From NCBI GenBank assembly GCA_964507055.1, contig CAZDOJ010000001.1, positions 13,210 through 77,209 on the forward strand: DNA of 64,000 bases. The letters run 5' to 3'. Made by a program: the position numbers and the translations under genes. Each line of letters opens with the position of its first letter. Within the stretch, counting starts at the first letter, position 1. Under the pieces are notes generated by a model, which made no database searches, was not told where the DNA came from, and saw only the letters and a list, made by a program, of their open reading frames with translations. The DNA is from an uncultured Gammaproteobacteria bacterium. GTDB lineage: Bacteria > Patescibacteriota > Microgenomatia > Levybacterales > UBA12049. This document shows positions 32,171 to 38,845 of this stretch, in pieces.

Positions 32171-33298
32171 ATGTCAAATCCTGAAAATAGACGGTCAGTA
32201 GAAGTAACAGAACGAACAGCACTTCATTCAGCATTTGCCGCAGCTGCACGAATTCATACCATGGGAGAATCTACTATAGAGAACGCCGGCTTATATCCTT
32301 CTTCGCGGATAGGAAAAAATCGACTTCGCCTCAGACCTGCTCTCGAAATAAGTGCTTCTGAAAAACCAGGAGATCCTCTTTCTCAAACAATTCTCATAAC
32401 ACGTAACGCACGAAAAGGTGAACAAACCATAGGTATTTCTATGAGTCCAGATGGAATAAGAAAATCATTTTTCAAATTGTATGATGAACCCGATTTTGAT
32501 GCGTACAAAGCACGTGCAGACCTCGATAGAGAAGACGCACTTTTTCAAAGAAGTGCAGGTTTGGACCTAATGAGTGATGCAGAAGTCCTTGCAAACATTC
32601 GTGAATTGCGAGGCATTATGGGAAGGGAATGGCCTGCCGATGTGGAGCTTCCAGACAATGAAGGTTCAAAATCTCTTCCAACCCCGGAAACTATTTCGCT
32701 CTTTCAGACTGTCACTTCTGAATTAGCATCACAGCGTCAGACGACACAAACCACTTGGTATGACGGAGGCAAACAATATTTGCTTACAACAATCGAAGAG
32801 AAGGGGAAGGGACCTGTTGAAGTTGTGCTTACACAGCTTGAAAGAGATCTTGATTCGACTTCAGATGAAAAAGTTGTACATACCTGGGAATTTCTCGGAA
32901 AGAAGAATAGATTTTCCTCTATATCTGGGGAATGGGAAGACGATTTAGCTTCGACTAGTAGCATAGAAGGTGATGAATATCATATTCAAGAAGAGATGAG
33001 AGAAAAACAGGGACTTTTTCGTGGTGTTTTTGGAGTAGACAAATTTAAAGCAAGTGAAGCTGAGGTTCAACTTGGATTAACGATATTAGAGCGAAGAGCT
33101 CAAGAGGCTGATCAAGCATTGCAGCAAGCCTTTGATGCGATGAGTGAACCGATACCAGAAAGAGAAGAAGGAGATCCAAATCCAGGCGGAACTCCAACGA
33201 TCGTTTTTGAAGCATCAGATGAAACATTAGAGGGCAAAAATGGAGATATCGATTGGAATGGTGAAGATGACCCTGAGGGTCCGCAAAAGTCGTTGTAG
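32171..33298 (+). CDS. tail-family protein T4 (family B)
   Basis: C-terminus NGDIDWNGEDDPEGPQKSL. Shares GREWPADVELPD and TTWYDGGKQYLLTT blocks with T6, T8 and T9. TGaTATACT lies 6 nt before the ATG. Confidence 0.85.
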   Translation: MSNPENRRSVEVTERTALHSAFAAAARIHTMGESTIENAGLYPSSRIGKNRLRLRPALEISASEKPGDPLSQTILITRNARKGEQTIGISMSPDGIRKSFFKLYDEPDFDAYKARADLDREDALFQRSAGLDLMSDAEVLANIRELRGIMGREWPADVELPDNEGSKSLPTPETISLFQTVTSELASQRQTTQTTWYDGGKQYLLTTIEEKGKGPVEVVLTQLERDLDSTSDEKVVHTWEFLGKKNRFSSISGEWEDDLASTSSIEGDEYHIQEEMREKQGLFRGVFGVDKFKASEAEVQLGLTILERRAQEADQALQQAFDAMSEPIPEREEGDPNPGGTPTIVFEASDETLEGKNGDIDWNGEDDPEGPQKSL

Positions 33299-33346
33299 AT
33301 GATTTAGCCCATTGCGATAATCCAATCATGTCTTTATAATGCCCCT

Positions 33347-33679
33347 ATGGTTGAGTCAAGAAGAAGGAGTGAACCGCCTCAAAGAAGAGGTCCATGGCAA
33401 GAGCGTGCTGGCAATATATTGCGATCGGCACGAAATAAATTTTCTGGGGATGTTGGACGCCTAGAGCAGTGCCTCGTTCCTATAAATGATCCCATAACGC
33501 CTGAACCAAAGAATGTCTCCGGTCCAAGTGGATGTCTCATCGATAATTCAGGTAAAACTTCCGAAAGAACTCCACCTCCAGATCTGGGGATATCGATTTG
33601 GGAACAACCACTATCACAGGTTTTTAATATCTTTGATGGTAGCAATGATGGCCAGAGCGGTCCCAGAAGATCTTTATAA
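33347..33679 (+). CDS. tail-family mini-protein T5 (110 aa: conserved head + tail only)
   Basis: Starts MVESRRR (compare T15 MVEQSRR) and ends FNIFDGSNDGQSGPRRSL. TATAAT lies 6 nt before the ATG. An equally long antisense ORF exists but lacks any family feature. Confidence 0.6.
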   Translation: MVESRRRSEPPQRRGPWQERAGNILRSARNKFSGDVGRLEQCLVPINDPITPEPKNVSGPSGCLIDNSGKTSERTPPPDLGISIWEQPLSQVFNIFDGSNDGQSGPRRSL

Positions 33680-33754
33680 TAGGACATACAGTTTGGTATT
33701 TATAAGTATTTGAGGCAATAGCATATTTTATATTGACATGATATACTCCCAGCT

Positions 33755-36338: not shown

Positions 36339-36347
36339 ACACCGATT

Positions 36348-37661
36348 ATGTCAAGACCCGAGCAAGAATCACAAGGTTTAGAACGGAAAAGACCAATAAG
36401 AGACCGTCTTAAAAATACGGTTTCAGGAATTGCGGAAAAAGGAAGAGGTTTGAAAGATTATGCTGTCGTATTTTCGCGTACAGCTCTTACTGTAGGTTTG
36501 CTTACACGCCACACATTACTTCATAGTTCTGATCGTCCTGATGGCGGATCAGAAAAGCGACCAGAAGCTTTATCCTACGCAGACCAAGCCAGACTATTAG
36601 CCGAACAAATTCACGCAAATGATCCTGTAATGACAGAATCGAATTTGGCATTCTATCCAGCAGCAGCTGTTACTGACGGTGATTATCAAATTGGTGTATC
36701 ATTCTATTCTGAGCCTTCTGCAGAAGAGGATTCAGGATCAATTTCTGTGACAATTGCTTTGGGAGCAGATCGTCCTTTGCCAGAGCGTGAATTACGATTT
36801 GATCCAGATGGAAGGTTAGAATTAGTTAATCATGGGGAATTACGAGATGCTTTAAATCGAAGAGATGAATCTGCAGAATTACAAACAGATTCTCTAACCG
36901 GAGAAGTGACACTTGAAGTTCCAGATGATGTCGATGATGCAGCTTTTCGTGAATACGCAGCAGCGTCTTCAGATAGGATACTCACCAATAATGAAGCACT
37001 CGTATATTTAGGATTTATAAAAGAACAAGTAGGCGATCGGTGGCCAGAAGATTTGGTATTACCTGATGTAACCGAGGATGGAGATTTTCCTGAAGCAATT
37101 GATGATACAAAAAGGCTGTTTACTCGAATTGCTGCTCGATTAGCGGCTCCACGTCCCGAATCAGCTGATGATCCACTATCGCCTAAGTTTGAACGAGTAA
37201 GAACAACCGAATGGATTATCTCTGAAGGCCATCGAGCAGTTCTTGATACACATACGAATGGGAATGGTGAGGTCGACGAAGTTCACCTAAAAACATATGA
37301 GAATGTTCCTACAGAATTTGGTTTTAGCTACGATGAAAGAAAGAAAGTGACTCTTCGGCCAGGAGACACAGAATATGAAGAATCAGTATATGTACATCCT
37401 GCTGACGTCTTTCATCTTACTGAAGCAAATCGAGAAGTGGCAATGGAATTAATGCAGTCATCAAGAAGAATTAGAAATCGAGAAGAACATGATCCTGCTA
37501 CAACGACTCAAATCGGGGAAGTATTTACAGTATTACAGTCCAAAGTTACGAGTTTGCGTGAACAACCTCGTCTTGATGACAATATTGATATAGAAGAACA
37601 AAATGGACATATTGATTGGGATGGACCAGATGATGATAGTGGTCCAAGAAGATCTTTGTAA
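36348..37661 (+). CDS. tail-family protein T8 (family B)
   Basis: C-terminus NGHIDWDGPDDDSGPRRSL. The N-terminus is homologous to T6. TGtTACAAT lies 9 nt before the ATG. Confidence 0.85.
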   Translation: MSRPEQESQGLERKRPIRDRLKNTVSGIAEKGRGLKDYAVVFSRTALTVGLLTRHTLLHSSDRPDGGSEKRPEALSYADQARLLAEQIHANDPVMTESNLAFYPAAAVTDGDYQIGVSFYSEPSAEEDSGSISVTIALGADRPLPERELRFDPDGRLELVNHGELRDALNRRDESAELQTDSLTGEVTLEVPDDVDDAAFREYAAASSDRILTNNEALVYLGFIKEQVGDRWPEDLVLPDVTEDGDFPEAIDDTKRLFTRIAARLAAPRPESADDPLSPKFERVRTTEWIISEGHRAVLDTHTNGNGEVDEVHLKTYENVPTEFGFSYDERKKVTLRPGDTEYEESVYVHPADVFHLTEANREVAMELMQSSRRIRNREEHDPATTTQIGEVFTVLQSKVTSLREQPRLDDNIDIEEQNGHIDWDGPDDDSGPRRSL

Positions 37662-37666
37662 TATAA

Positions 37667-38845
37667 ATGAATACTCCAGAAAATCCACGATATAAAGGAC
37701 CTGATAGATCAGGGAAAGTTGAGAGAGCTCCCCATGTTGAAACACCATTTCAAGAAGCAGTGCGTTTGGCTACAGCACTACATCGTGCAGATCCGAATCG
37801 TATCTATCAAGGATTTGGGAGGTATGACGTATTTTCAGACACGCCTGGTGTTTCAGGTGTACATGAGGTGCATGTGGATCCTTTGGATGTAGATCAGAAA
37901 GGGACGCATGGGTTCGTCTTTCCTTTCGATGAAGAAGTTGAAGGAGAACAAGTTGTCGGATCTGTACGATTTTTTATCAAAGATGGGTTGATGCATGCTG
38001 ATCCTACAAAGATTTGGGAAGCAAATGCTATGCGTGCATTAGACGAGGAGTTCGGACCCGATCATGTGGATGAGTTGGGTTTTCCTGAGCAATCTGGTGC
38101 TTCAGAGAGGTTTGTTGCGGAATCTCAAGTCCTTGCATCTGTTCAAGCGGAATGGGAGAACCATTTTCAAACAGCCGCGAGTGCACTTGCCCTTGGCTCA
38201 GTTCGAGAAGTATTAAATCAGATAAAAGCCACGTATAGTGAATTGCTTCCAAAAGAATTAGGTTTTGATGATATAGATGTATCCGCTCTCGATTATGATA
38301 GCGTCATAGCTCATGTAGGTCTAGCAGCTGAACACCTTGTGATATCAACGATACATTATAGCGAATGGCACGATGGACAAAATACCTATAATCTTACAAC
38401 GGAAAAAGATAAAACTGGAGCAGTGACAGATATTAGCTTCAAACACGCACACCGAATGGCGGATGATATGGCGGTCACGCATACTATTCGTGATTGGACA
38501 TTTACTGCTGATGGAGAATATTGTGCTGGATCGTATCAACAATTAGCTCCTTTTGCGGAGTATCTTGAAGATCCTGCTCAACTCCAAATGGTTTCGGCTC
38601 ACAACAAAACGCAGATGGACGAGCGAATCCGAGAAGCAGATCTTGGTGAAGATATTGCTGACACGCTACAAATACAAGCAGGAATTGATTTGCTGAAAGA
38701 TCCAAAACATTTTAAAATTCTCCAACCAGTACTTAATAAAGGAGATGTACTTTTTCCCGAAGAAGAATCCTTAGATCAGCGGCATGAACAGATTGATTGG
38801 AGTGGAGAGGATGATCAAGATATTGGTCCACATAGATCGTTATAA
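37667..38845 (+). CDS. tail-family protein T9 (distant family B)
   Basis: C-terminus HEQIDWSGEDDQDIGPHRSL. Lies only 5 nt after the T8 stop, so it is probably co-transcribed. Confidence 0.85.
   Translation: MNTPENPRYKGPDRSGKVERAPHVETPFQEAVRLATALHRADPNRIYQGFGRYDVFSDTPGVSGVHEVHVDPLDVDQKGTHGFVFPFDEEVEGEQVVGSVRFFIKDGLMHADPTKIWEANAMRALDEEFGPDHVDELGFPEQSGASERFVAESQVLASVQAEWENHFQTAASALALGSVREVLNQIKATYSELLPKELGFDDIDVSALDYDSVIAHVGLAAEHLVISTIHYSEWHDGQNTYNLTTEKDKTGAVTDISFKHAHRMADDMAVTHTIRDWTFTADGEYCAGSYQQLAPFAEYLEDPAQLQMVSAHNKTQMDERIREADLGEDIADTLQIQAGIDLLKDPKHFKILQPVLNKGDVLFPEEESLDQRHEQIDWSGEDDQDIGPHRSL

Follow-up and report, generated by a model that had tools for sequence, protein, structure and literature searches.

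By analogy, the locus described here may be compared most closely with two known arrangements, the Bartonella bep array beside virD4 and the X-Tfe effectors of the Xanthomonadales with their XVIPCD. In Bartonella, the Bep effectors of the VirB/VirD4 system are duplicated and diversified paralogues encoded in an array beside the coupling-protein gene and carry a common C-terminal translocation signal behind differing N-terminal parts, as is generally known and as described in two reports (PMC8714903, PMC5675462). This signal is a folded BID domain of ~140 amino acids (aa) plus a positively charged tail, and in these diderm bacteria the virB channel genes are adjacent. The X-Tfe have unrelated effector domains and one conserved C-terminal XVIPCD that is bound by VirD4 (PMC8740702, PMC8262851); the XVIPCD is folded and ~120 aa long, and the X-Tfe are toxins with immunity genes, scattered in the genome. 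Here we analysed a stretch of 64,000 nucleotides (nt) of contig CAZDOJ010000001.1, called the window below, in which many unrelated proteins likewise share one C-terminal element, a tail of ~30 aa, and are encoded in an array beside the gene of a type IV coupling protein (T4CP). We concentrated on region 32171-38845, which consists of six open reading frames (ORFs) on the same strand, T4 to T9, and is part of a far longer gene run. Four of them, T4, T6, T8 and T9, form a family of paralogues, family B, and we think it rather likely that these are secretion substrates that depend on the coupling protein and carry a C-terminal signal specific to their lineage.

In contrast to both described arrangements, the locus has a short motif and not a folded domain, lacks immunity genes and nearby channel genes, and encodes a T4CP without a membrane anchor. 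No BID or XVIPCD domain was matched in Pfam among the 20 array proteins scanned (T12 and T14 left out) and, unlike the case of the X-Tfe, no small immunity-like genes lie between array members among the ORFs of the window. Type IV secretion signals are usually disordered, and those of the Dot/Icm (type IVB) systems of Legionella and Coxiella consist of a short disordered C-terminus with an acidic patch ~10-17 residues from the end and a hydrophobic residue near the terminus (E-block). The tail in the window is similar in having an acidic block at positions -7 to -12 and a terminal Leu. However, Dot/Icm signals are compositional without a strict motif, their effectors are dispersed, and the DotL/M/N/IcmSW coupling complex is unrelated in detail.

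In the Patescibacteria (candidate phyla radiation), coupling-protein genes are mostly remote from virB4, with only 148 of 5,713 found near it (PMC12102498), and a T4CP gene apart from channel genes is also what we see in the window. A type IV secretion system (T4SS) is essential for epibiotic growth in at least one cultivated Patescibacterium, with substrates unknown (PMC12857230, PMC12102498), and in the literature searched on Patescibacteria T4SS we found no effector arrays or C-terminal motifs. A contig size of 1.32 Mb, a G+C content of 40%, a reduced set of housekeeping genes and surface proteins of VWA/Hint/dockerin-like type are suggestive only of a likeness to Patescibacteria.

Family B and the age of its members

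The original prediction held that T4, T6 and T8, with a distant T9, form a second paralog family interleaved with unrelated genes. Because the tail is common to all the proteins compared, the last 30 residues of T4-T9 were cut before comparison. Without the tails, T6 and T8 matched each other by blastp at E=4e-13 (27% identity over 263 aa), and the other pairs gave 3e-9 (T4-T6), 1e-3 (T4-T8) and 0.016 (T4-T9). In Smith-Waterman alignments against 300 shuffles the z values were 21.1 for T6-T8, 15.0 for T4-T6, 6.2 for T4-T8 and 4.0 for T4-T9; the pairs among T4, T6 and T8 are significant against these controls, and the family stands, with 23-27% identity among its members in the window. Both motifs quoted for T4, T6 and T8, the WP...LP block and the downstream T-x-W...Y-x-L block, are present (in T4, for example, GRE-WP-ADVELPD at residues 151-162 and TTWYD...YLLTT at 194-207). 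T5 and T7, said to be unrelated to the family, scored at the chance level of shuffles against every family B member and were matched neither by a T4/T6/T8 profile nor by a profile of external homologues, in agreement with that statement.

The three-sequence T4/T6/T8 profile also missed T9, which scored no better than decoys (4.5 bits). When 1.84 billion representative proteins were searched exhaustively by profile, 13 more family members came up, P0006-P0018, with E values from 3e-29 to 3e-4. A profile built from these 13 homologues alone, with tails cut and with ~1,000 shuffled decoys, matched T4 (3e-39), T6 (1e-37), T8 (2e-36) and the full length of T9 (8.4e-26), while the best decoy reached 0.06. 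T9 thus truly belongs to family B; the membership proposed for it was correct, and the description of it as distant and weakly aligned was too reserved. It is most closely related to P0010, P0012 and P0013, which form a divergent subgroup. Similarity outside the tail over the full ~300-aa domain is found in T4, T6, T8 and T9 alike. Family B is thus a real paralog family that includes T9; it is present in at least four lineages and is rare, with 13 other representatives among the 1.84 billion proteins.

The members of the family are anciently diverged. T4 is closer to P0008 (33% over 367 aa), T6 to P0007 (31% over 349 aa) and T8 to P0006 (33% over 417 aa) than to their paralogues in the window, and since T4, T6 and T8 have closer full-length relatives in other organisms, the duplications predate the split of these lineages. 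T9 is nearest to the tail-less P0013 group (26% over 342 aa), and the best window match of P0013 itself is T6. Paralogues in such arrays can thus be ancient and not recent tandem copies.

The gene order is also old. L019 comes from a relative that has the tail type of the window; there, orthologues of T3 (59% identity), T4, T5 (38%, E=1e-7, at the same position as T5) and T7 (54% and 35% in two pieces) are followed by a family B gene. The T5 orthologue has an intact tail (LIDWNGSKDSPAPKKSL), and in the T4 orthologue, P0008, the family B domain is fused to a domain of family A, another paralog family of the array. T6 is absent from L019; on another contig a T6-like gene lies right next to a T8-like one, with no T7 between them; and three family B genes follow one another directly in a third island, where two others alternate with unrelated genes. 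The interleaved order is therefore ancient and survives in part in relatives, apart from single genes gained or lost now and then; it is not evidence of recent insertion. The earlier suggestion that the order reflects repeated insertion or duplication was right as to gene gain and loss and too simple in other respects, as the copies are old and their order is kept in L019. As a separate observation, the T7 orthologue of L019 (3804-4962) is in two overlapping ORFs of 173 and 214 aa, which points to a frameshift (pseudogene) or an assembly error.

T6 and T8 also share an N-terminal segment, proposed earlier to be a helical or membrane-interacting element. This segment is significant by itself (z=17.4, 0 of 1000 shuffles) and occurs in the T8-like homologue P0006 (z=12.1 and 6.6). 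In all three proteins it is an extension of ~50 residues with a basic stretch followed by a second stretch. We took a conserved hydrophobic helix of ~19 residues with a mean Kyte-Doolittle value of at least 1.6 as the mark of a membrane helix. The best 19-residue mean in the second stretch was 1.63 in T6 (aa 40-58), 1.05 in T8 (with two Arg inside) and 0.54 in P0006, which does not agree with a conserved transmembrane segment or membrane anchor. The hydrophobic moment of the T6 second stretch is low, and only the preceding basic stretch is moderately amphipathic (~0.4). The segment is thus a real shared module, as predicted, and not a conserved membrane helix.

Fold and database relatives of family B

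No match to T4, T6, T8 or T9 was found in Pfam, NCBIfam, PHROGs or PADLOC, and searches of PDB sequences and profiles with family B gave nothing under E=0.05. Word-indexed protein searches returned the query proteins themselves only, and scans of genome and metagenome contig collections with the T4CP and with alignments of family B and family A found no relative. Even on a cautious reading, family B is a new domain with no relative in curated libraries.

An AlphaFold2 (AF2) model of T6 from the three window sequences was unusable (predicted local distance difference test, pLDDT, 43), and a model of T4 from a 15-sequence alignment reached pLDDT 76 with a predicted template modelling (pTM) score of 0.68. 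In this model, the first half of the domain is predicted to contain a helix (17-31), five antiparallel strands (34-103), two helices (109-153) and the WPxDxxLP loop, and the second half a helix (172-188), five strands (189-254) and two long helices (267-324). The linker and the tail at the end are of low confidence and disordered, which is consistent with a secretion signal. As modelled, family B is an acidic alpha/beta domain of ~300 aa (isoelectric points of the proteins 4.6-4.85) with two lobes, each made of a helix and a five-stranded antiparallel sheet. An internal repeat between the two lobes was considered and was not significant (hhalign E=0.21), and a fold search with the model gave no convincing and informative relative.

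The most conserved columns of the family are W154, P155, P161 and W196 (T4 numbering; 15-16 sequences from several organisms). Since the best-conserved columns are W, P, G and A and not residues of catalytic type, the domain is probably a binding or scaffold module without enzymatic activity.

The shared tail and the gene array

The tail has the consensus PLxxLDxxIDWxGxxDPDxGPxR[ST]L-COOH and is found on 21 consecutive genes (24938-58797). A regular expression of it matched 19 of the 21 array genes, none of the 25 other window genes (Fisher p=5e-11) and no other ORF in six frames. The two remaining tails, those of T5 and T20 (56079-57275), are degenerate: T5 lacks the IDW and T20 ends in ...GPKMR. 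Beyond the T4CP gene (from 62700 onward, continuing in L006 1-9854) there are at least five more tail-bearing genes with products of 527, 372, 883, 213 and 889 aa, all of which end in ..DW..G..GPxR/K-T-L, so that the array comprises at least 26 genes in total.

Codons at the conserved residues of the tail are scattered: the terminal Leu is encoded by five different codons, Gly by three and Arg by three. Selection therefore acts on the tail peptide. This synonymous scatter, together with DNA identities of 62-79% over 58 nt, ruled out that the tail arose as a DNA repeat or by gene conversion.

No N-terminal hydrophobic signal was found in any array protein. The usual marks of effectors, a common C-terminal signal, the lack of a Sec signal peptide and linkage to a coupling protein, are thus all found here, and the linkage is kept in a second organism. 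The original prediction spoke of tail genes; if phage tail genes were meant, this was wrong, as "tail" here is a shared C-terminal peptide and no PHROG matches were found for T1, T3-T9, T16 and T21. Phage and defence-island readings were ruled out by the absence of PHROG and PADLOC hits.

Nearly all genes between 27053 and 56079 are preceded by a TATAAT-like box whose end is 6-9 nt from the ATG (for example at 42098-42127 and 53558-53587), and no Shine-Dalgarno sequence is visible upstream of these array genes. T5 has its own TATAAT box 6 nt upstream of its ATG. Because of these boxes and the lack of a Shine-Dalgarno sequence, each array gene seems to have its own promoter and a leaderless mRNA. 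Several housekeeping genes (16938, 22831 and 8353) have the same promoter look.

Other array members were also of interest. Family A is a second and larger paralog family, made up of T10-T14, the N-terminus of T19 and genes past the T4CP gene (window 38847-44513 and 53577-54536; L006 8271-9854). It has invariant H, E, D and E residues and a GWxGxxHTxxxH motif, which suggests that it may be a hydrolase family; it had no Pfam or PDB match. The tail-bearing T15 includes a sigma-70 region 2 and two region-4 matches, and T17 and T18, also tail-bearing and 40% identical, contain several helix-turn-helix (HTH) domains each (T15, T17 and T18 are covered by 44557-46401 and 48738-53528). These three resemble transcription factors, and similar proteins occur in islands L008, L015 and L017. 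T2 (27053-28978) is a tail-bearing FAD/NAD(P) pyridine nucleotide-disulphide oxidoreductase (Pyr_redox_3, 4e-10) and the sole array protein with a recognisable enzyme domain.

The coupling protein and islands in other lineages

The gene at 58799-62551 encodes a coupling protein of the VirD4/TraG type. Its product matched PF02534 (5e-29, 101.8 bits against a cut-off of 20.1), PF12696 (39 bits) and PF10412 (35.2 bits), all above their cut-offs, and by tblastn 349 plasmid TraG/VirD4 genes. Alignments to such plasmid genes gave 24-25% identity with 83-91% coverage of the ATPase part (E=1e-9). The ATPase part spans ~aa 670-1190 and has the Walker A motif GPTGQGKS at residue 692. The N-terminal region of ~670 aa is unique, and no membrane helix was predicted in the protein, with top 19-residue hydropathy values of 1.34 in the window T4CP and 1.14 in its L008 orthologue. 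These two T4CPs are 34% identical in the ATPase part only, and their N-terminal ~660 residues cannot be aligned (z=-0.3); speculatively, this variable region is a candidate receptor.

The extreme C-terminus of each T4CP resembles the tail end of its own lineage. The window T4CP (58799-58850, minus strand) ends in ...KGKDDGPPKLGK, to be compared with the tail DPDxGPxRSL, and the L008 T4CP (12607-12660, minus strand) ends in ...GGPDPKKGSASK, to be compared with the tail GGPNKGKTK. This likeness may represent a pseudo-substrate or just shared composition.

The architecture of the window is repeated in another organism. The family B homologue P0011 is on a 90.7-kb contig from a different study, and its surroundings (L008 and L017) run from a plus-strand array through a 492-aa gene and the gene of a 1350-aa T4CP, both on the minus strand, into more array. 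The 492-aa gene is at the position of T21 (27% identity, E=2e-6), so the T21-T4CP pairing is kept in this second organism, and family A, T17/T18, T20, T21 and the gene that opens the second arm all have orthologues there. All 25 array genes of L008/L017 carry a tail with another motif, EPxIGxxSxxSIxDQE...KGK[ST]K, which stops exactly at the housekeeping border; the DHH, HIT, S21, YbeY and DnaX genes have no tail. Two more tail types (..VE[IF]VGxxG...DDRDDDRDR and ...NGRE/DSR) are found on family B homologues and their neighbours in two further lineages, and one of these arrays adjoins an opposite-strand gene of more than 1174 aa. The tail therefore changes as a block between lineages in which the gene order is conserved.

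P0013 (L011 10001-11002; also in L012 and L013) is tail-less and solitary between DnaB (a fragment) and a Mur ligase, in housekeeping surroundings. On the contigs that carry P0013 (110-354 kb for those examined here, up to 922 kb), neither an array nor a T4CP was found within 10 kb of it. Because this tail-less protein stands alone without an array, the tail goes with membership of a T4CP-centred island.

Possible function and alternative explanations

From these data we infer recognition of the tail by the T4CP, export of the array proteins and a binding function of the family B domain. Array proteins would be made in the cytoplasm, since they have no signal peptide, each gene being expressed from its own leaderless-type promoter. 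The tail would then be the translocation signal that docks on the T4CP, which would hand the proteins to a type IV secretion channel encoded elsewhere, with delivery probably into a partner or host cell. Family B domains would probably be binding modules without enzymatic activity, each paralogue having become adapted to a target of its own. More tentatively, and with less confidence than in secretion itself, we propose that the tail could be the first sequence-defined translocation signal of such systems, co-evolving in each lineage with a soluble T4CP whose variable N-terminus of ~670 aa would be the receptor, and that the cargo could comprise the binding modules of family B, one family of putative hydrolases, and proteins of sigma-factor-like or multi-HTH type, which possibly reprogram host transcription.

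Several points weigh against our main interpretation. The T4CP does not have the usual N-terminal membrane anchor, and Pfam searches of the window and of the flanking loci L006, L008 and L017 found no VirB4 or VirB6/VirB8-like channel genes, so that a functional type IV machine in this genome is putative. Five family B representatives have no tail, and the co-variation of tail and T4CP is seen in two sequenced pairs only. In addition, there is no informative fold relative, which makes the binding module the default reading of the domain.

Other explanations were also considered. The missing anchor and channel genes would be as expected if the tail were a targeting or assembly tag for a machine other than a type IV system, such as a compartment, a surface layer or another ATPase exporter, and the T4CP were merely co-inherited; it is generally known that short C-terminal cargo-loading peptides occur on unrelated proteins in other systems. 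However, the T4CP is the sole recognisable machine component in ~100 kb of island sequence from two organisms and is central in both, the tail has no shell, sortase or membrane-anchor feature, and no other machinery was matched in Pfam, so we regard such a tag as unlikely. It is somewhat less probable still that family B proteins are chaperones, adaptors or immunity-like partners of the unrelated genes directly upstream of them (in the pairs T3-T4, T5-T6 and T7-T8) that are kept in the producer cell.

A tag for degradation or regulation that keeps protein levels low, on what would be an ordinary cytoplasmic gene-family expansion, is very improbable. C-terminal degrons exist, as is generally known, and tail-less P0013, with housekeeping genes around it, does have the look of a usual cytoplasmic protein, but the island encodes neither a protease nor an adaptor, and a degron on at least 26 unrelated proteins of one island around a secretion ATPase would have to be swapped wholesale in a sister lineage. 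We know of no precedent for a degron that is confined to an island and replaced in this way. These three explanations fit the comparative data less well than secretion through the coupling protein. All family B proteins of the window are acidic and tail-bearing, as would be expected if their similarity were an artefact of tail or composition or if the genes were phage tail or mobile-element cargo. The tail-less shuffle statistics and the external-only profile refute the artefact, and the lack of PHROG and PADLOC hits, together with homologues that have other tails or none, leaves this explanation with hardly any likelihood.

If secretion through the T4CP is correct, the tail motif would list candidate substrates straight from sequence, and the tail variants of related islands, at least four in number, would be a natural experiment on the co-evolution of signal and receptor. 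The conserved cargo families, including family B, would then have targets to be sought in host cells.

Gene coordinates and other features of the window

The coordinates of the genes discussed above are given in Table 1.

Table 1. Genes and segments of region 32171-38845 and of the surrounding array (window coordinates; E values from the external-only profile).
Feature	Position (nt)	Strand	Description	Basis
T4	32171..33298	+	family B, 375 aa; domain ~aa 14-330, disordered linker, C-terminal tail DIDWNGEDDPEGPQKSL	E=3e-39; AF2 pLDDT 76, pTM 0.68; closest relatives P0008 (33%/367 aa) and P0011
T5	33347..33679	+	110 aa, small, Arg/Pro-rich, not family B; degenerate tail FNIFDGSNDGQSGPRRSL	
T6	33755..35056	+	family B, 433 aa; domain aa 70-398; tail IDWNGDTDPDQDGPPRTL	E=1e-37; closest relative P0007 (31%/349 aa)
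T6 N-terminal extension	33794-33949 (aa 14-65)	+	shared with T8	
T7	35116..36297	+	tail-bearing, 393 aa, unrelated to family B (399 aa if started at GTG 35098)	
T8	36348..37661	+	family B, 437 aa; domain aa 68-405; tail HIDWDGPDDDSGPRRSL	E=2e-36; closest relative P0006 (33%/417 aa, N-terminal extension included)
T8 N-terminal extension	36384-36530 (aa 13-61)	+	shared with T6 and P0006	
T9	37667..38845	+	family B, divergent subgroup, 392 aa; domain aa 14-337; tail QIDWSGEDDQDIGPHRSL	E=8.4e-26, hmm positions 6-339; best decoy 0.06
Tail array	24938..58797	T1-T20 on +, T21 on -	21 consecutive genes with ~30-aa C-terminal tail	
T21	57280..58797	-	505 aa, tail-bearing; begins 1 nt after the T4CP stop codon	
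T4CP	58799..62551	-	VirD4/TraG-type type IV coupling protein, 1250 aa	
Array second arm, first gene	62700..64000	+	527 aa, family A-like; extends past the window end	

No Rfam match and no tRNA gene was found in the window. The starts given by the longest ORF are likely to be wrong for T7 (35098-35116), T10 (38784-38850) and T11 (39961-39976). The likelier starts are 35116 for T7, ATG 38847 (MVEAY...) for T10, which is 1 nt past the T9 stop, and 39976 for T11. T7 probably starts at ATG 35116 rather than at GTG 35098; it is 393 aa long in gene calls on other assemblies, and a TATACT box lies 8 nt upstream of ATG 35116.

Outside the array, two regions on the minus strand (582-4812 and 11594-13407) encode putative surface proteins, including proteins that have VWA and SdrD_B domains with dockerin-like C-termini and a Hint-domain protein with a Gly/Ser-rich end.

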